Virus record (IMG/VR): IMGVR_UViG_3300034418_007369
Span: 1 to 64,000 of that record
Reading direction: 5' to 3' (one strand)
Length of the DNA: 64,000 bases
Origin: a virus
In this document: positions 37,065 to 45,672 of the stretch, one piece after another
Layout: the number at the start of each line of letters is the position of its first letter
Position numbering within the stretch: the stretch's first letter is position 1
Position numbers and translations under genes: made by a program
The notes under the pieces: model-generated
Seen by the model: only the letters and a program-made list of their open reading frames with translations
What the model was told of the DNA's origin: nothing
Database searches by the model: none

Positions 37065-38087
37065 ATGATAGTAACGTATATTAGGTCGTCTAGCTATGGC
37101 AACTATGAATTTTGTCAGATGCAGTATTTTATGACATATGTCTTAGGTCATAGATCGGCTTCTGGAAAAAAGGCGCAACAGGGTACAGCCTGTCATAAGG
37201 TCATGGAATGCTTAGCGGCATGTAAAAAAGAACTACAAGAAAAGCCAGAAGAAAAAAATCTATCTATTACAGATGATGCTATTGGCGAAGTAGAATTTAC
37301 ACCCAAAAAGCTCTACACTAAAAAATTTGTAAAAGATTTAATGGATAGAAGTTATGAGTATTATACCTCTATGGATGACCATAAGTACTATCCGGCAGAT
37401 TTTAGATTTTGTGAACAGCAAGTTGAAACGGCACTTACTTACAATGATGGTCAGTTCGACCCTAGAAATAGAACCATTGTAGACACAGAGCCTACTTTCG
37501 ATATTCCTATTGAAGAAGATTGGGCTAAGTTTGAATATGAAATGCCAGATGGAACCAAACTAAATGGACAGCTCGCTATCAAAGGAACTATTGACTTAGT
37601 TACACAAATTGATGACGGCGTTATAGAGGTCATAGACTGGAAAACAGGACAAAGAAAGAACTGGGCGACCGGAGAAGAAAAAACTTACGAAAAACTTCTT
37701 GAAGATCCTCAACTTCTATTGTATAACTATGCGATATCTAAATTATATCCAGACTATGAACAGGCTATTATGTCTATCTTCTTCACAAGAGACGGCGGCC
37801 CTTTTAGCATGTGTTTTGATGCGTCAGATCAAGACAGGTTTTTGGGTATGCTAAAAGCCAGATACGAAGAAATAAAACAAAATATTAAACCAAAGCCAAT
37901 TAAACAAAACAGAATGGATTTTAGATGTCAAAAACTATGTCATTTTTATAAGAATAATTGGCCCGGAACAAATACTACAATGTGTCAGCATGTCGAGGGC
38001 AGGCTGCACACGATTGGCTATAAAGAGACCCTCAAAGAGTGTACTAAGGAAGGATTTAACATAGGATATTATGAGGCTCCGGGATAA
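37065..38087 (+). CDS. Cas4/RecB-like PD-(D/E)XK exonuclease
   Basis: C..QY, GT.CH, GTIDL..IDWKTG, QL..Y and C-terminal C..LC..C Fe-S ligands. Confidence 0.82.
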   Translation: MIVTYIRSSSYGNYEFCQMQYFMTYVLGHRSASGKKAQQGTACHKVMECLAACKKELQEKPEEKNLSITDDAIGEVEFTPKKLYTKKFVKDLMDRSYEYYTSMDDHKYYPADFRFCEQQVETALTYNDGQFDPRNRTIVDTEPTFDIPIEEDWAKFEYEMPDGTKLNGQLAIKGTIDLVTQIDDGVIEVIDWKTGQRKNWATGEEKTYEKLLEDPQLLLYNYAISKLYPDYEQAIMSIFFTRDGGPFSMCFDASDQDRFLGMLKARYEEIKQNIKPKPIKQNRMDFRCQKLCHFYKNNWPGTNTTMCQHVEGRLHTIGYKETLKECTKEGFNIGYYEAPG

Positions 38088-38088
38088 T

Positions 38089-38811
38089 ATGAAGGGAATA
38101 ATTTTAGCAGGTGGCACAGGAAGCAGGCTTTACCCGCTTACAAAAGTTACAAACAAGCATCTTTTACCAGTCGGAAAATTTCCAATGATTCACTATCCAA
38201 TAGTGAACATGAAAAACGCTGGCATAACAGACATATTGATTGTTAGCGGAACAGATCATGTGGGAGACATGATAGCTTTTTTAGGCAGCGGAAGCGAATA
38301 TGGTTGCGACTTTACCTTTAAGGTTCAGGATCAGCCAGATGGAATCGCCGGAGCTTTAAAACTGTGCAAGTCTTTTGTTGGGAGTGATAATTTTTTGGTT
38401 GTCTTGGGGGATAATATTTTTGAAATTGACATTAAGCATCACATAGATTCATTTAACACATCTGCAAAGTTTTTCTTTAAACGCATGGAAAATCCTAATA
38501 GGTTTGGTGTTGCTGTTCTAAATGACGATTTTGAATTATTAGAAATAGAAGAAAAGCCAAGCAATCCCAAGAGTGATTTAGCCTGTATGGGCATATATAT
38601 GTATACAAGCGAACTTTTTAATTATGTGGACGATCTTAAAAAATCAGAGAGAATGGAGTACGAAGTTTCCGATTTAAATAATCTCATGATAAAAAACCAT
38701 AAGACGAGTTACGTTATCATGGATGAATTTTGCATGGACGCAGGCACTATGGACTCCTATCACTATACAAATAAAATTTTAATAGAAAATGATAAACGAC
38801 CAAGGGGGTAG
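38089..38811 (+). CDS. rmlA: Glucose-1-phosphate thymidylyltransferase (RmlA/SpsI-like)
   Basis: GIILAGGTGSRLYPLT..NKHLLP, Q..P.GIA, LGDN, EEKP and DAGT. Confidence 0.88.
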   Translation: MKGIILAGGTGSRLYPLTKVTNKHLLPVGKFPMIHYPIVNMKNAGITDILIVSGTDHVGDMIAFLGSGSEYGCDFTFKVQDQPDGIAGALKLCKSFVGSDNFLVVLGDNIFEIDIKHHIDSFNTSAKFFFKRMENPNRFGVAVLNDDFELLEIEEKPSNPKSDLACMGIYMYTSELFNYVDDLKKSERMEYEVSDLNNLMIKNHKTSYVIMDEFCMDAGTMDSYHYTNKILIENDKRPRG

Positions 38812-38813
38812 CC

Positions 38814-39695
38814 GTGTCGCAGTTGATAGACCTAAAAAAAGACTTTGATTTGGGGAATAAATTTTTACTAGACGTAGCGTCAGAGCTATCTAACACTCTA
38901 GATGATAGTTATAGGGTTGTTATTAAGTATGATCTACAAGATTACAATATTCCAAAAGACGACAAGAAAAATATACTTTTTGCGCTGTCTAGAGAAACAC
39001 ATGAACTACCAAGATACACAGAAGACGAAAGGATTTTTCTTACGTTTCATAACTATGCTCCTTTAGACGCTTGGGGACATCCGATAAATCATCCGAAAGT
39101 TGTGCCGCTGCCGCTTGGATTCTTTATAAATGATATGACCTCCAAGGTTGAAGAAATAAAGCCTCACGAAGATAGAGAATATGACTTCTGTTTCGTTGGA
39201 CAGATACCGCATACCGGAACAAGAGATAAGTTTAAAAGATGTTTAGACAATATGCTAGAGCGCATAGGAAATAAATACAAATACTACGTCAAATATACTG
39301 AGTCTTTTGGTTGCGGCTTAGATCATCAAGAATATATTGACTTATTAAACAACTCAAAAATTTGCCTATGTCCGACTGGGGCATATAGTGATGAGTCTTT
39401 TAGATTTTTTGAATCTATAGCTATGGGGGCGTTCCCTATGGTTGAAATGCTGCCAAGGTTTTGGTATTATGAACAGGCACCAATGTTTTTCGCTAAATGG
39501 CAATTCTTAGATAGCTTTCTAGAAAATTCTTTAAATTTTTTACGATCTGAAAATAAAAGAGTTGCACTTGAACAAATTGTAAACTACAATAATACAATAT
39601 TGAATACTGTCACCCTTTCTGGATTTTTGAAAAAGATAATTGATGAACAGCAAATACATACCAATAAATTGCAAGACCCACTTCAGTCTCCTTAA
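38814..39695 (+). CDS. Exostosin/GT47-like glycosyltransferase
   Basis: FVGQ and Y..LL.NSKICLCP.G...ESFRFFE....G. Confidence 0.7.
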   Translation: MSQLIDLKKDFDLGNKFLLDVASELSNTLDDSYRVVIKYDLQDYNIPKDDKKNILFALSRETHELPRYTEDERIFLTFHNYAPLDAWGHPINHPKVVPLPLGFFINDMTSKVEEIKPHEDREYDFCFVGQIPHTGTRDKFKRCLDNMLERIGNKYKYYVKYTESFGCGLDHQEYIDLLNNSKICLCPTGAYSDESFRFFESIAMGAFPMVEMLPRFWYYEQAPMFFAKWQFLDSFLENSLNFLRSENKRVALEQIVNYNNTILNTVTLSGFLKKIIDEQQIHTNKLQDPLQSP

Positions 39696-41235
39696 AGGAT
39701 TCTCTAATCCCGATAGACTAGCGAAACTGTGCGCTTCATATAACTATGGGGCGTGCGTTCTTGCTGATGTCAACACTCTTTCTGGCGCCGTGAACTTTCA
39801 TCAGGCGTGTACGAAGAATGGCGTCAAGCCAATACTAGGACTAGACACAGAGCAATTCCTCCTAATTGCAAAGAATAAAGCTGGATGGCTAGACCTTATT
39901 AAATATTCTTCAGAAGAACAAGATATTGACACTCTGAAAAGAATAGCTGATAATGGCAACATTTTGTTTATAACAACAGAAGATAGTCCAGCCCAAAAGA
40001 AAATGTGGGGAAAGAATTATTTTTGTTATGATTATATTTCTGATGCGGTGTATTATTGCACCAAAGAAGAAGCAGAGCTACATAGAATCATTCTGTGTTC
40101 TGGGATGAAAACCAGCATTCCGAAAGTTACGGCAAAGCTGCAAAAGGGAGAAGATTTTGAAAACAAACACTTCTTTACAAGTGAAGATTATTGCTTAAAG
40201 CCGACAAGCAGAGTCACAGGTAATAAAAAATTATTTGACGCACTCGCTTCGTGCGAAGAGTATGAAATCACCGGAAAGCCAATGCTGCCAGAGTTTGATG
40301 TGCCTGAAGGGTTTGATAGTGATGAGTATCTTAAAGAGCTTTGTCGGCATGGTTGGAAATCTAAACTCGCCCCCGCTGGCAAAGTGTCCGACCCAAAACA
40401 GAAAGAAATCTATCTGCAAAGAGTAAAGACTGAGCTTGAAGTTATCTTTAAGGCTAATCTTAGTGGTTATTTTTTGATCGTGCAAGATATTGTCAATTAT
40501 GTTAAAAATCGTGGCTGGATCGCTGGTCCCGGTCGAGGATCTGCTGCCGGGTGTTTGATCTCTTATTTAGTTGGAATCACAGAAGTTGATCCAATTGAAT
40601 TTGACTTACTCTTTGAGAGATTTTATAACGAGGGACGGAATACGGAAGATCACGTCTCGCTTCCAGATGTTGATATGGATGTTCCCGCAGAACATCGAGA
40701 CGAAGTAATTGACTACATTAAAGAAAAGTATGGAATTGATAAGGTCTCCCAGATGGTAACATTTGGTAAACTACAAGGTCGCGCGGCGATCAAAGAAGTT
40801 TTAAGAATCAATGATGCTGTATCTTTTTCTGAAATGAACGCTATTACAGATAGTATTCCAGATGAAGCTAAAATTTCTGACCAGCTAGAACTCATGGAAG
40901 ATAAGTCTATTATCAGATGGGCGCTAGAAAACGAATCAGAAGCGCTAAAGAGCTGGTGCTATTATGATGAAGAAGGAAACTTAGAAGGACCGCTATCAAG
41001 ATATTTTGAACAAGCTATTAAAATTGAAGGAACAAATAAATCTCAGGGCAAACATGCTGCCGGTGTAATTATATCTAAACATCCACTAGCAGAGGTTTGT
41101 CCAATGGTTAAAGACAAGAATGGTAAAATGATTGCCGCGCTTGAGATGAATGACCTAGAGGCTATGGGTCATGTTAAGTTTGATGTTCTTGGAATTGACT
41201 TGTTAAGTAAAATTATGGAAATATGTGAGGATTAA
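39643..41235 (+). CDS. dnaE: DNA polymerase III alpha, N-terminal half (degenerate PHP, palm, thumb)
   Basis: THFSLL, YFLIV.D, GPGRGSAAG, LLFERF, PDVDMD, HAAGVII and KFDVLG, then a stop. Confidence 0.92.
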   Translation: MNSKYIPINCKTHFSLLKGFSNPDRLAKLCASYNYGACVLADVNTLSGAVNFHQACTKNGVKPILGLDTEQFLLIAKNKAGWLDLIKYSSEEQDIDTLKRIADNGNILFITTEDSPAQKKMWGKNYFCYDYISDAVYYCTKEEAELHRIILCSGMKTSIPKVTAKLQKGEDFENKHFFTSEDYCLKPTSRVTGNKKLFDALASCEEYEITGKPMLPEFDVPEGFDSDEYLKELCRHGWKSKLAPAGKVSDPKQKEIYLQRVKTELEVIFKANLSGYFLIVQDIVNYVKNRGWIAGPGRGSAAGCLISYLVGITEVDPIEFDLLFERFYNEGRNTEDHVSLPDVDMDVPAEHRDEVIDYIKEKYGIDKVSQMVTFGKLQGRAAIKEVLRINDAVSFSEMNAITDSIPDEAKISDQLELMEDKSIIRWALENESEALKSWCYYDEEGNLEGPLSRYFEQAIKIEGTNKSQGKHAAGVIISKHPLAEVCPMVKDKNGKMIAALEMNDLEAMGHVKFDVLGIDLLSKIMEICED

Positions 41236-41451
41236 ATGAATGCTACAAAAGAAGAATATATGTCTGTGATTTTTTCTGGTTGCAGTATTGACTATAAAGA
41301 TATTACATTTTGTAATTTGGCTAATCACTATAGAAGATTGGCAAGATCAAATGAATATCAAGTATGGTCAGACAGACAAAACGAATATCACCTATTTAAA
41401 AATATCGAAGATGCTGTTGATAAGTTTATTGAACTAAAGAAAAGGAAGTAA
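41236..41451 (+). CDS. Small hypothetical protein inside the split dnaE locus
   Basis: GAGGA RBS, 71 aa. Confidence 0.65.
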   Translation: MNATKEEYMSVIFSGCSIDYKDITFCNLANHYRRLARSNEYQVWSDRQNEYHLFKNIEDAVDKFIELKKRK

Positions 41452-41452
41452 C

Positions 41453-42148
41453 ATGGCGAACTATAGAGATATTATTGTTTTTGACTTTGAGACCGGCGGC
41501 GCTAATCCATATACGTGTCAGCCAACTCAAATCGCGGCTGTGGCTATCCACGCTAGAAAGCTAGAGCTACAGCCCGGAGGCGTGTTTAACAGCGAGATTC
41601 GCCCTATTATCGACGACGATGAGGCCATTAAAGCGGGAGTCGGCCCGTTGGAGGAAGAGGCTCTGCGGGTAACGCGCAAAAACCGTGACGACCTAGCAAA
41701 AGCACCTTTGCCCAAAACAGTATGGAAAAAGTTTGCTCAGTTTTGCGACAAATATAATTTTAAGAAAACTAATTATTATGCACCTATCGCTGCTGGCTAT
41801 AATATCAATGGCTTTGATATGCCTATTGTGGAGAGAATGTGTCAACAATATGGTCCAACTCATGCAAAGAATGGCAGGCAGGGAATCTTTAACCCTATTT
41901 TTACCATTGATGTAATGCAACATATTTACTGCTGGTTTGAAAACAATACAGAAGTAAAGGGATATGGTATGGATTACTTGCGCGACTATTTTGGAATGAG
42001 TCAGGCTAGTAAGGATAATGCTCACGATGCGTTGCAAGACGTTAAGGATACCGCTAATATCATGATTAAGTTCATGAAATTGCAAAGAACATTGCTACAT
42101 AAAGTTAAATTTGAAAAAACATTTGCGAACGGGGATATTTATGTCTAA
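41453..42148 (+). CDS. DEDDh 3'-5' exonuclease (DnaQ/epsilon-like)
   Basis: FDFETG, GYN..FD and HDALQD. Confidence 0.88.
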   Translation: MANYRDIIVFDFETGGANPYTCQPTQIAAVAIHARKLELQPGGVFNSEIRPIIDDDEAIKAGVGPLEEEALRVTRKNRDDLAKAPLPKTVWKKFAQFCDKYNFKKTNYYAPIAAGYNINGFDMPIVERMCQQYGPTHAKNGRQGIFNPIFTIDVMQHIYCWFENNTEVKGYGMDYLRDYFGMSQASKDNAHDALQDVKDTANIMIKFMKLQRTLLHKVKFEKTFANGDIYV

Positions 42149-43682
42149 ATTTGACATTAATAATTTTGAAGATGAAGAAGTTTGGGATTTGATTTGCGAA
42201 GGACGCACAAAGGGCGTTTTTCAACTTGAGTCTAGCCTTGGTAAGCATTGGGCTAAAGAAGTCAAACCCAGAAGCATCAGTGAATTAGCGGCTCTTATTT
42301 CGTTGATTCGTCCCGGCTGTTTGAAGGCTTACACAGATGGTAAATCCATGACACAGCACTATGCGGATAGAAAAAAGGGAACTGATGCTGTTGATTACCC
42401 AGATGATTCTTTGGAGCCTATTCTAAAAGGAACCTATGGTGTTTTGGTATACCAAGAGCAAAGCATGAAAATCGCCCAGCAACTAGCTGGGTTTGACCTT
42501 AAAGAAGCTGATTCGCTTCGTAAGGCTATTGGTAAAAAGAAAGCTGAACTCATGGAAGAAATGAAACAGGTCTTTATGGATGGCGCCGAAAAGCAGGGGA
42601 TTATCAAGAAGGAAGTGGCGGGAGAGATTTTTTCATGGATCGAGAAGTCTAACCGCTACGCCTTCAACAAAAGTCACGCTGTTTCATATGCTATTGATGC
42701 ATACTGGAGCGCGTACTGTAAATGTCATAGATTAGAGAGGTTTTACGTGAGTTACATGAATCGCTCTGACCGTAAGCCAAAGCCTGAGATTGAGCTAAAA
42801 CAGCTTATCATGGATGCTAAGATGCATGGGCTAGACACCTATCCGCCAAGGCTTAATCACATGCACACAAATTTTCTACATGAGAATGGTAAAATTTATT
42901 TTGGTATGAGGCACATTAAAAATGTAGGCACGAAAGAGTGTGATAAAATTGAAGAATTAAAACAAACAGAAGATTTGTCTTTGTTTACTTGGATGGATTG
43001 TCTTATCAAGATTGTTCACCGTACCAAGATCAACAAGCGAGCGGCAATTGCTATGATTTCTGTTGGTGCGTTTAATGGCAAGAACAATAGAGAGTCTCGC
43101 CAGAAAATGCTGTATGAATATGATAGCTGGAATAATCTTTCTGCAAGAGAAAAAGATGCCATCGCTGATAATTACAAAAGTAATTTAACTTTGGCTCAGT
43201 GTGTAGACCTGCTATCAGACTGGGTTAAGATTAATTCTAGAAGGGCGCAAGCGATAGAGGACATCAAGCAGTCTCTCATTTCGCCATTCTATAGCCTAGA
43301 TGACGATCCCGCCTCTATTGCAGATTATGAAATTAAATTAATGGGGTGTGCCTTGACATGCAGTAAGGCAGATTCTATAAATATTTCTACAAATATGTGC
43401 AAAGATGTGACACAGGGTACTATAAGAGGTAAGGTAAATCTTTCTGTGATGATTAATTCTATCCGTACCTATAAAACTAAAAAGGGAAAGAATCCCGGCC
43501 AAGAGATGGCTTTTTTGTGTATTGAAGACGCGAGCGGCGAACTGGATTCCGTTACAATTTTTCCAGAAGCATTTATAAAATATAAAGATTTATTGATAGA
43601 AAGAAACACTGTCTTCATAGATGGTGAGGTTTCTAAGAGGGATAAAAATTCCATCGTTGTTAATAAAGTTATACAAGTTTGA
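42141..43682 (+). CDS. dnaE: DNA polymerase III alpha, C-terminal half (fingers, HhH, OB)
   Basis: GVFQLES, LIRPG, TYGVLVYQEQ, LRKAIGKKK, YAFNKSHA and MAF..IED.SG. Confidence 0.92.
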   Translation: MSKFDINNFEDEEVWDLICEGRTKGVFQLESSLGKHWAKEVKPRSISELAALISLIRPGCLKAYTDGKSMTQHYADRKKGTDAVDYPDDSLEPILKGTYGVLVYQEQSMKIAQQLAGFDLKEADSLRKAIGKKKAELMEEMKQVFMDGAEKQGIIKKEVAGEIFSWIEKSNRYAFNKSHAVSYAIDAYWSAYCKCHRLERFYVSYMNRSDRKPKPEIELKQLIMDAKMHGLDTYPPRLNHMHTNFLHENGKIYFGMRHIKNVGTKECDKIEELKQTEDLSLFTWMDCLIKIVHRTKINKRAAIAMISVGAFNGKNNRESRQKMLYEYDSWNNLSAREKDAIADNYKSNLTLAQCVDLLSDWVKINSRRAQAIEDIKQSLISPFYSLDDDPASIADYEIKLMGCALTCSKADSINISTNMCKDVTQGTIRGKVNLSVMINSIRTYKTKKGKNPGQEMAFLCIEDASGELDSVTIFPEAFIKYKDLLIERNTVFIDGEVSKRDKNSIVVNKVIQV

Positions 43683-43693
43683 AAAGGATTATT

Positions 43694-44020
43694 ATGAATA
43701 ATTGCTCTTTTTTAGGCAAGCTCAAAGAGCCTGTCTTTTCTACAGTATCTAATGATGTTGATATGGTTAATTTTGTACTTGAAGTTGAAGAATATAGAAA
43801 AAATAAATCTGGTCAAAAAACAAGACGTGTTGAAAATCTAACATTTGAAGCATGGCACACCGCCGCTATTACCCTGAGAGAAAAATTAAATGTTGGCGAT
43901 CTCGTTCTGGTAGAATGTACAGCCAGAAGCAAAAGAGACGAAGATGATTTTTGCTACTTTAGAGTCAATAGTTTCAAGATTTTTAACAAAGAAAGATACT
44001 CCACGCAATCGGAAGACTAA
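43694..44020 (+). CDS. Second, divergent SSB-like OB-fold protein
   Basis: N.CSFLG.L, FEAW..A and GDLVLVE. Confidence 0.7.
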   Translation: MNNCSFLGKLKEPVFSTVSNDVDMVNFVLEVEEYRKNKSGQKTRRVENLTFEAWHTAAITLREKLNVGDLVLVECTARSKRDEDDFCYFRVNSFKIFNKERYSTQSED

Positions 44021-45672
44021 TGAGAAAAAAGAAGATATTGTTTGTTTCTGAGGCTTCGTGGCTTAGTACCGGATATTCCGTATATACCAAGGAAGTTCTT
44101 AGTAGACTAAATCAGATAGAAGAATTTGAAGTTGCTGAACTAGCCTGCTATACGGACGCAGCAAATCCAAATATAAAAAAAACACCTTGGAAGGTATACG
44201 CCAATAAACCATTACCAGACGATCCAAATCTAAATATTTACAAATCTAACACAATTGCTCAATTTGGTGAATTATCATTTAATAGCGTACTGCTAGACTT
44301 TATGCCAGATATTGTGATGGATATTAGAGACTGGTGGATGCTAGAGTTTGAACAGCGCTCGCCTTTTAGAGACATGTTTCACTGGGCGATTATGCCAACG
44401 GTAGACGCATCGCCACAAAATATGCAATGGATAAATACGTATGACTCTGCGGATTCCGTGTTTGCTTATTCTGAATTTGGAAGAGATACGATGAGTCGTC
44501 AATGCGACACGATAAAGTTTGTTGATGTGGCGTCTCCGGCGGCCAGTAAGGTATTCAGTCCAGTAGATGATAAGCGCCAGCATAAGATTAACATGGGCGT
44601 GTCCCCAGATAGTATTATAGTGGGAACCGTAATGAGGAATCAAAAAAGAAAACTATATCCAGATCTGTTTTCTTCATTTAGAAAATTTTTAGATATTGCA
44701 AATAAAGATAACGTGTTTTTATACGCGCACACCTACTATCCAGATGTTGGATGGGAGATTCCACAGCTAATACAAGAAAACGGTCTTTCTAATCGCGTAC
44801 TGATGACATATAAGTGTAAGAAGTGTGACACTATCAGTGTTGACTTTTTTCAGAATTCTGTTCAGGTATGTAATAAATGTAAGAGTTTGTCTAATCAGCT
44901 TGTTGGCATAGGCAATTCAATAGAAGAAAATAGACTCTCGCAGATTTACAATCTGTTTGATATTTATGTCCAATACGCAAACAGCGAAGGCTTTGGTATG
45001 CCGCAGCTTGAAGCGGCGCACTGCTCTCTTCCTGTTATTTCTACTTATTATTCTGCCATGCAGTCTGTAATAGACAATATTGGTGGAATCGGAATAGAGC
45101 CAATTTCATACTATAAAGAATGTGAAACGGGATGCAACAGGGCGGTTCCAGATAATGAGCTTTTTGTTCAGGCTTTACTAGACCTAATTTCACGCCATGA
45201 AAACGATTCTAATTATTTGGTTGATCTGGGTAGGACCATTATGGAAAAAGCCAAACATCACTATACTTGGGATGCAGCTGCCGACAAGTGGGCTGCTAGA
45301 TTTAAAGAGGTGGAACTAAAAGACCCAAAAGAAACTTGGCTGTCTCCATCAAAAATTAGAGTACCAAAAACTGAACTACCCGCCTCACTTAAAAACGCCA
45401 AAGAAATAACGGATTTTATTTTTAATAGTGTTTTGTGCAAGCCCGAATGGATCGGTAATCATATTTGGAGAAGGATGTTAAGAGATTTGACATTTGGCTA
45501 TAAGTGCGAAAGTTCTAATAAAGAGTTTTACTTTAATGAGTCTCATAACAAATCTCAAAAATCAAGTTTGCCCTTTTCTCCTCAAGATGCACTAAAAGAA
45601 ATGTTAAACTTTAGAAATCAGATGAACTCTTGGGAACAGGCCAGATTAAGAAAAATCGGAGCAATAAAATGA
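44020..45672 (+). CDS. GT4 glycosyltransferase with an inserted zinc ribbon
   Basis: RNQKRK and SEGFGMPQLEA; CKKC..CNKC insert. Confidence 0.85.
   Translation: MRKKKILFVSEASWLSTGYSVYTKEVLSRLNQIEEFEVAELACYTDAANPNIKKTPWKVYANKPLPDDPNLNIYKSNTIAQFGELSFNSVLLDFMPDIVMDIRDWWMLEFEQRSPFRDMFHWAIMPTVDASPQNMQWINTYDSADSVFAYSEFGRDTMSRQCDTIKFVDVASPAASKVFSPVDDKRQHKINMGVSPDSIIVGTVMRNQKRKLYPDLFSSFRKFLDIANKDNVFLYAHTYYPDVGWEIPQLIQENGLSNRVLMTYKCKKCDTISVDFFQNSVQVCNKCKSLSNQLVGIGNSIEENRLSQIYNLFDIYVQYANSEGFGMPQLEAAHCSLPVISTYYSAMQSVIDNIGGIGIEPISYYKECETGCNRAVPDNELFVQALLDLISRHENDSNYLVDLGRTIMEKAKHHYTWDAAADKWAARFKEVELKDPKETWLSPSKIRVPKTELPASLKNAKEITDFIFNSVLCKPEWIGNHIWRRMLRDLTFGYKCESSNKEFYFNESHNKSQKSSLPFSPQDALKEMLNFRNQMNSWEQARLRKIGAIK

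Follow-up and report, generated by a model that had tools for sequence, protein, structure and literature searches.

Replication of all bacterial chromosomes depends on C-family DNA polymerases, whose alpha subunits have been studied as single chains. In cyanobacteria, DnaE is encoded by two genes at separate loci and rejoined by protein trans-splicing (the Ssp and Npu DnaE split inteins), and to our knowledge this intein-repaired form is the only accepted natural split of a C-family polymerase. Here we describe a natural DnaE that is likewise encoded by two genes, dnaE-N and dnaE-C, in a 64,000-nucleotide stretch of viral DNA (hereafter the window), which corresponds to positions 1 to 64,000 of the 80,291-bp IMG/VR virus record IMGVR_UViG_3300034418_007369 (CheckV completeness ~52%). 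In contrast to the intein-repaired cyanobacterial break within the fingers, the break in the window lies at the palm/fingers junction and carries no intein, and the gap between the two halves is filled by a gene for a conserved 71-amino-acid (aa) protein, s71, and a gene for a DEDDh exonuclease.

Two-piece phage polymerases lacking inteins have been described in family B. DNAP-N and DNAP-C of PhiKZ were shown experimentally to form a stable 1:1 complex (PMC13648687). In Aeromonas phage 25, gp43A and gp43B are purified together and have activity, and phage Aeh1 has a functional split NrdA (PMC2988022). The polymerases of PhiKZ and of Aeromonas phages 25 and 44RR resemble that of the window in consisting of two intein-less polypeptides, with non-covalent assembly shown for those enzymes and proposed for this one; they differ in belonging to family B rather than C, in their break points and in having no proofreader gene nested in the gap. 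As in the genes-in-pieces Aeh1 nrdA and gp43A/B, two open reading frames (ORFs) of the window jointly cover one protein without loss. Genes brought into pieces by mobile insertion, however, hold a homing endonuclease or mobile element in the gap, whereas the window gap contains s71 and the exonuclease gene only, with no homing endonuclease; HNH was found solely as an extra insert in one related locus (L011).

Within the C family, Iyer et al. (2021; PMC7824862) described in group 2.2 jumbo phages a minimal Pol III alpha module made of two stand-alone proteins and predicted to reconstitute an enzyme. That module lacks PHP, HhH and OB domains and is encoded by distant genes beside PolB, whereas the window encodes a full-length DnaE, in one apparent operon, as its only detectable polymerase. 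Dassa et al. (2009; PMC2677866) reported environmental phage replication genes, dnaE among them, that are fractured by split inteins; these carry a split intein and a homing endonuclease at the break, and the window break has neither. We found no paper describing an intein-less split full-length DnaE with an exonuclease gene inside, and no such arrangement is described in the surveys by Timinskas (2014; PMC3919608) and of bacterial polymerases in 2026 (PMC12926913), or by Kazlauskas in 2011 (PMC3201878) and 2016 (PMC4889955).

Five ORFs on the + strand are packed without spacing between 39.6 and 44.0 kb of the window. The first, dnaE-N (39643..41235, 531 aa; frame open from a TTG at 39640), encodes a shortened, ligand-less PHP domain, the palm and the thumb. 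Its TAA stop codon (41233-35) lies immediately 5' of the ATG of s71 (41236..41451), and a single nucleotide separates the s71 stop from the ATG of the exonuclease gene (41453..42148, 231 aa). Pfam domains assign the fingers, HhH and OB fold to dnaE-C (42141..43682, 513 aa), which starts at ATG 42141 (MSKFDINNF...) and on direct reading overlaps the exonuclease stop codon (42146-48) by 8 nt, the overlap that a preliminary description of this DNA had noted. The dnaE-C frame is open from a TTG at 42111 (ORF 42111-43682), but because non-overlapping relatives begin at MFDINNF we regard that codon as merely the start of the open frame. The ORF of a short bacterial-type SSB (43679..44020, 113 aa; Pfam SSB, 5.8e-9) in turn overlaps the dnaE-C stop. 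A purine-rich stretch lies a few bases 5' of each start codon, and the packing at the N/s71/exonuclease/C junctions is typical of translational coupling. Promoter and terminator scans gave signals no higher than shuffled controls, so the reading of the locus as a single operon is based on gene spacing only.

The palm of dnaE-N matches the complete Pfam DNA_pol3_alpha model (positions 1-260 of 260, E 1e-71), and its catalytic Asp motifs, PDVDMD and KFDVLG, are intact and align to those of Taq and E. coli alpha. Pfam matches in dnaE-C comprise DNA_pol3_finger (26-166 of 166, 1.3e-46), HHH_6 and an OB fold. On the NCBIfam profile PRK05673, dnaE-N covers positions 205-567 and dnaE-C positions 588-1054; the corresponding intervals on phrog_405 are 246-612 and 623-1068, and against solved structures residues 211-523 of N correspond to E. 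coli alpha 273-563 and residues 19-323 of C to 591-890. Since the two are complementary on DnaE profiles and structures alike, N and C make up one complete DnaE with no residues lost, in agreement with the preliminary description, which had taken the halves together for one full DnaE. The NCBIfam DnaE equivalog cut-off of 1002 bits is reached by neither half (best 345 and 305 bits). A candidate beta-clamp motif, RQKMLYEYD, lies in a conserved helix just past the stretch aligned to E. coli alpha 591-890, short of the QADMF clamp site, and we make no claim for it.

The end of dnaE-N, ...LLSKIMEICED followed by the TAA stop, is conserved in relatives. Across the break an unsplit relative, P0002 (1102 aa; 54% identity to the window over the palm), reads ...ILSKVMKIAQDK-NLNINDFSD... 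(in short, ...SKVMKIAQDK-NLNINDFSD...); the window counterpart is ...LLSKIMEICED(stop) and MSKFDINNFEDE. P0002 was modelled with AlphaFold2 from an alignment of 88 rows combining unsplit proteins with N- and C-halves, and the model has a predicted local distance difference test score (pLDDT) of 95.5 and a predicted template modelling score (pTM) of 0.91. Over its full length the model superposes on the DnaE structures of Taq, M. tuberculosis and E. coli (E 1e-47 to 1e-57) and more weakly on PolC (1e-27), which identifies the predicted polymerase fold, by way of the unsplit relative, as DnaE rather than PolC. The strand with the third catalytic Asp (573-581) is followed in the model by a helix (582-594) equivalent to the window N tail, a coil (595-603) equivalent to the window C head, and a further helix (604-611). 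The model thus locates the break in a short coil after a helix, at the palm/fingers junction where the fingers start, equivalent to about E. coli alpha 571-583. The cyanobacterial intein site (the PRK09532/PRK07373 boundary) falls at about residue 175 of the window C-half, inside the fingers, so that the window break lies ~190 residues upstream of the cyanobacterial one.

Whether split point and gene order are conserved had been named in the preliminary description as a check on its claim of two separate dnaE genes with an exonuclease between them, and both proved to be widespread. IMG/VR yielded 71 related loci in a first scan and 110 more when scanned with more distant relatives; split loci were counted among the 111 whose N part is followed downstream by 5.5 kb or more of sequence. 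Of these, 107 show the break at the identical point and have the exonuclease gene lying between N and C; the other four are continuous, and every locus has a C part. N-half identity to the window ranges from 94% down to 41%, and the recurrence of the same break in 107 of 111 related loci takes the split far beyond chance. A HMMER search of 1.84 billion cluster representatives returned 19,215 homologues; among the best 150 clusters (50% identity), which were examined, 142 terminate 0-23 residues past the same helix, six continue into the fingers and one has a cpYpsA fusion. In this last representative, P0123 (762 aa), the N-half ends at the usual split point and is joined to a C-terminal cpYpsA (SLOG) domain, possibly through a gene-call error. 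A word-index search gave 5761 proteins at E<=1e-30, all metagenomic, some of them Tara Oceans genes whose calls are complete at both start and stop. Phage isolates gave no megablast match, and the tblastn matches listed were all below 35% identity and continuous or adjacent, with no cultured member found among them.

Sequences from other studies speak to the assembly error that the preliminary description had wished to exclude. The junction region is present in public runs of at least 10 studies, from freshwater, estuary and marine samples; one public run holds contigs exact to the window, a 6.4-kb contig of another study covers 40222-43743 with 198 substitutions and 0 indels, and independent contigs from other studies cover all junctions without indels. 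Contigs from a salt-marsh RNA library bridge the s71/exonuclease and exonuclease/C junctions unspliced, which we take as a weak hint of expression. Three joints with short sides of 24-26 nt, for example from 41201 to 41468, most likely stem from other strains or organisms and were not counted. In one run (X1), a low-depth contig joins 41201 to 41468 across a 26-nt short side and so skips s71; it may represent another strain or a chance join and is not evidence of an s71-less form. Ratios of non-synonymous to synonymous substitution rates (dN/dS; Nei-Gojobori, window against relatives) were 0.045-0.056 for N, 0.017-0.063 for C, 0.011-0.054 for the exonuclease, 0.11-0.21 for s71 and 0.06-0.10 for the SSB. 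All five genes are under purifying selection.

The locus was also searched for a route by which the halves might be rejoined. The N, s71, exonuclease and C proteins gave no Pfam match to Hint or intein families, a six-frame scan of the whole 80-kb record with Intein_splicing gave nothing at E<=1 while controls, including Synechococcus, were positive, and Rfam returned no group I or II intron and no other credible RNA, only a chance snoRNA (E 0.2). At the junction itself N ends in ...EICED and C begins with MSKFD, without a Cys/Ser/Thr +1 nucleophile context. The absence of intein and intron at the split, asserted in the preliminary description with the expectation that an intein profile search would come out negative, therefore stands. 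Among the 107 split loci, the frame of C relative to N is spread over all three offsets (47, 31 and 29 loci), and N stop and C start lie 630 to 4595 nt apart (median 967). This spread of frame offsets, together with the variable gap length, excludes a conserved frameshift or read-through. The longer gaps contain genes for class I and FkbM methyltransferases, GT2 glycosyltransferases, a formyltransferase, glutamate dehydrogenase and HNH. Such inserted cargo and the spread of frames argue against splicing into one polypeptide, and because ordinary cargo genes occupy the longer gaps the pieces behave as independent genes. Cargo between N, s71, the exonuclease gene and C was seen at loci L008, L010, L022, L033, L049, L051, L055, L060 and L067, and includes helix-turn-helix proteins; the seams of the split gene seem to serve these phages as insertion sites.

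The exonuclease matches Pfam RNase_T (1.6e-13) and phrog_192, 'DNA polymerase exonuclease subunit', and its five DEDDh residues, D11, E13, D122, H191 and D196, are invariant across 47 distinct homologues. It does not reach the cut-off of epsilon equivalog models (best PRK06309, 21 bits against 245) and has no sequence match in the PDB, and for these reasons we call it DnaQ-like, not a demonstrable epsilon orthologue.

That s71 is a real gene follows from its 39 distinct homologues with nine invariant residues and from the purifying selection on it. It has no match in Pfam, PHROG or NCBIfam. An AlphaFold2 model (pLDDT 88) predicts a helix, four beta strands and a second helix, with no convincing match among solved structures: Foldseek found none, and the best hit in a VIA structure comparison, YkuJ, had Z 6.5, under the noise guide of 8. 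Several candidate identities were rejected. A likeness of the fold to the AP2 repeat, which would make s71 a relic of an AP2-like homing endonuclease, is weak (VIA Z 5.2); an Atlas feature match of 0.85 to DUF2552 is at chance level; and the predicted four strands between two helices are not the three-helix fold of theta or phage P1 HOT. Profile matches extend to distant subclades, with an 83-aa protein at L065 (97% probability) and an 87-aa homologue at L081 (12105-12368; hhalign 95.6%) that follows dnaE-C just before the SSB gene. An s71 homologue also lies upstream of the unsplit dnaE of L083/L084 (hhalign 99.4%), and because the s71-exonuclease pair thus precedes unsplit dnaE as well, s71 appears tied to the exonuclease or polymerase and not to the split. 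From its constant pairing with the exonuclease gene, s71 might be a small partner of the proofreader, a suggestion we offer tentatively.

The PHP match of dnaE-N is short (residues 11-95, PHP positions 4-97, 47 bits). In the alignment to Taq, P, N, K, K and V of the window stand in place of the PHP ligands H, H, H and D of motif I and H of motif II, so the metal ligands are lost, as the preliminary description had suspected from the degenerate stretch NCKTHFS. The degeneracy is not bound to the split, however. Many split N-halves elsewhere retain canonical LHxHS...LLDG...TDHG motifs and full-length PHP matches of ~130 bits with the exonuclease still present, and PHP decay is accordingly a feature of sublineages. 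Loss of the PHP site as cause or consequence of the split is ruled out by the same canonical N-halves. The gene set recalls the E. coli Pol III core, in which the alpha PHP is also ligand-less and a separate DEDDh exonuclease and a protein of ~70-80 aa likewise occur; it differs in that E. coli alpha is a single chain and that theta is three-helical where s71 is modelled as alpha/beta.

Unsplit members of the family form sister lineages (L069-71, L083/84, P0002, P0068 and P0122). The preliminary description had held that a continuous dnaE in relatives would count against the split; continuous genes do exist, confined to a few basal sister lineages, and they represent the unsplit state rather than a sign of an artefact. 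The contiguous DnaE proteins of these sister phages (P0002, P0068, P0122; L083/L084) belong to the same family (44-54% identity), share the residues flanking the break and have s71, exonuclease, SSB and glycosyltransferase neighbours in common with the window. They differ in reading palm and fingers in a single frame, with the s71-exonuclease pair upstream of dnaE (L083/L084) and not inside it. At L083/L084 the order is PD-(D/E)XK nuclease, a 165-aa ORF, s71, exonuclease, dnaE continuous across the palm/fingers junction, SSB and glycosyltransferase. The window has the same outer neighbours (PD-(D/E)XK nuclease, SSB, glycosyltransferase) but the inner order N, s71, exonuclease, C. On the simplest reading of these gene orders, the split would have come about by a swap of the N-coding segment with the s71-exonuclease pair, possibly through tandem duplication of s71-exonuclease-N followed by complementary losses. 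From an ancestor with the order s71-exonuclease-dnaE, such a swap would have introduced a stop plus a start within a surface coil at no cost in residues. A single origin of the split, or a small number of origins, is most likely. In a quick FastTree of the palm region the unsplit L069-71, P0122 and P0002/3/68 lie at the base, and either one ancient fission with rare re-fusion or a few fissions would fit.

Other interruptions of dnaE occur among relatives. At L010 (11130-13962) and also L083 (7001-11684), the C part is fractured again: the fingers end in ...RYAFNK and run into a Cys-initiated N-intein of ~95 aa, followed by a free-standing gene for a NUMOD3/DUF559 (Vsr-like) endonuclease and then a C-intein of ~38 aa, ...ATSN, before SHAVSY. 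The dnaE of L010 is thus in three pieces, N, C1 and C2. This fracture site we take to be ~4 residues or less from the cyanobacterial DnaE intein site (AEY|CFNK). This second fracture matches the 'fractured genes' reported by Dassa et al. (2009; PMC2677866). Contiguous inteins occupy other DnaE sites, in the fingers of L065 (10821-13214) and P0096, in the PHP domain of P0020 and, with LAGLIDADG, in the palm of P0038; this DnaE family is an intein hot spot, yet the palm/fingers break is without any. At L016 (4397-5943) the C part shifts frame between residues 258 and 262 with homology unbroken, probably a sequencing frameshift. Two cultured phages have unrelated dnaE interruptions with no exonuclease between the pieces: Tenacibaculum phage Larrie (L073; ON950054.1, 62602-66182), with two 'Pol III alpha' coding sequences 2 nt apart and broken within the palm region, and Bacillus phage vB_BceM_WH1 (L074), with three dnaE coding sequences 0.4-0.7 kb apart, probably separated by introns.

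Elsewhere the record encodes a DnaB-type helicase, a DnaG-like primase, a UvsX/RecA-like recombinase and a ribonucleotide reductase, in addition to the SSB. Neither PolA nor PolB was found in the 80-kb record, so the split DnaE is the only detectable polymerase of the available half-genome, and a beta clamp was not found in the record, which is about half a genome. The PD-(D/E)XK nuclease gene lies upstream of dnaE-N at 37065-38087. An RmlA-like sugar nucleotidyltransferase gene and a glycosyltransferase-like gene stand within the replication operon at 38071-39695, the latter overlapping dnaE-N by ~53 nt, and another glycosyltransferase-like gene after the SSB gene (44020-45672) is syntenic in nearly all relatives. 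Among relatives with enough flank, most have SSB directly after dnaE-C or one extra ORF later; it is absent from this position in a few (L012, L036, L039 and L040).

N and C are likely, in our view, to pair through the native palm/fingers interface and so form one polymerase without a covalent link. The replicative polymerase of the phage would then be a C-family (DnaE-type) enzyme made of two polypeptides, N bringing the PHP remnant, palm and thumb and C the fingers, HhH and OB fold, with one active site rebuilt between them. N, s71, the exonuclease and C are probably translated in a coupled manner from one message, so that the pieces would be made available together. The DEDDh exonuclease, as a separate subunit like E. 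coli epsilon, would proofread in trans, a role that fits the loss of the PHP metal ligands in the window, and s71 may be a small partner of the exonuclease or of the polymerase. Several points weigh against this view. Binding of N to C and activity of the pair are deduced, and the new N and C termini show no additional dimerisation element. The record is ~52% complete, so another polymerase or a clamp could be encoded elsewhere, and the RNA-library contigs could be DNA carry-over. The palm tree requires at least three state changes, with the unsplit pair P0096/P0113 nested among split forms.

An alternative is that the halves have separate jobs and form no joint polymerase, N acting for example as a minimal nucleotidyltransferase or nuclease scaffold and C as a DNA- or clamp-binding factor. 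The halves are indeed independent genes that tolerate kilobases of cargo between them, P0123 has its N-half fused to the unrelated cpYpsA domain, and the split Pol III module beside PolB described by Iyer et al. (2021; PMC7824862), though different and minimal, can be cited in its favour. Yet N and C co-occur in order in all 107 split loci and match one DnaE residue for residue, and the record contains no other polymerase. Pol III alpha structures indicate, moreover, that C-family catalysis requires fingers residues for deoxynucleotide binding, and we regard separate functions as improbable. The halves could instead be rejoined by an unrecognised route, whether new protein or RNA trans-splicing or translational bypass, given that the natural split DnaE of cyanobacteria is rejoined by a split intein and that relatives carry split and contiguous inteins at other DnaE sites (L010, L065, L083). 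This we think very improbable, since no Hint or intein signal appears at the termini or in the 80 kb, no Rfam intron was found and the ...EICED and MSKFD termini lack the nucleophile context; the gap, moreover, consists of two conserved genes under selection and grows to 4.6 kb with cargo in relatives, the frame offsets are spread over all three frames, and RNA-library contigs are unspliced at the junctions.

A stop inside a gene that is normally undivided usually points to a pseudogene or an error, and the record is an incomplete metagenomic contig, so the gene might be broken and non-functional, with the phage using the host Pol III, or the break might be an assembly or sequencing artefact. 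Such an explanation is barely credible. That over 100 independent contigs and 142 of 150 clusters share the identical break already refutes an artefact, as do contigs of other studies that are exact or indel-free, while dN/dS of 0.02-0.06 in both halves and intact catalytic motifs speak against decay; loss of catalytic residues in many relatives, as in a pseudogene, was not seen. Beyond non-covalent assembly of N and C, the s71-exonuclease pair may dock at or near the N/C seam, making the polymerase complete only as a four-protein complex of N, C, exonuclease and s71, an extension that we hold to be rather unlikely. Were it true, proofreading would be built into assembly, as a non-covalent counterpart of the in-cis exonuclease of PolC, and the fingers/DNA-binding module could be exchanged or regulated apart from the catalytic palm.

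The unrepaired cut between palm and fingers is kept in a very large and abundant group of aquatic phages, with thousands of sequences and contigs up to 230 kb, and it persists down to ~40% identity with the proofreader gene always inside. The s71-exonuclease-dnaE order of the sister phages offers an unusually clear before/after view of gene splitting by what would be rearrangement and not a mobile element. If the halves do assemble, the DnaE palm/fingers interface would be strong enough to stand alone, and these phages would provide both a natural template for split or modular C-family polymerases and a tractable system of four small genes for the assembly of alpha, epsilon and a small partner.

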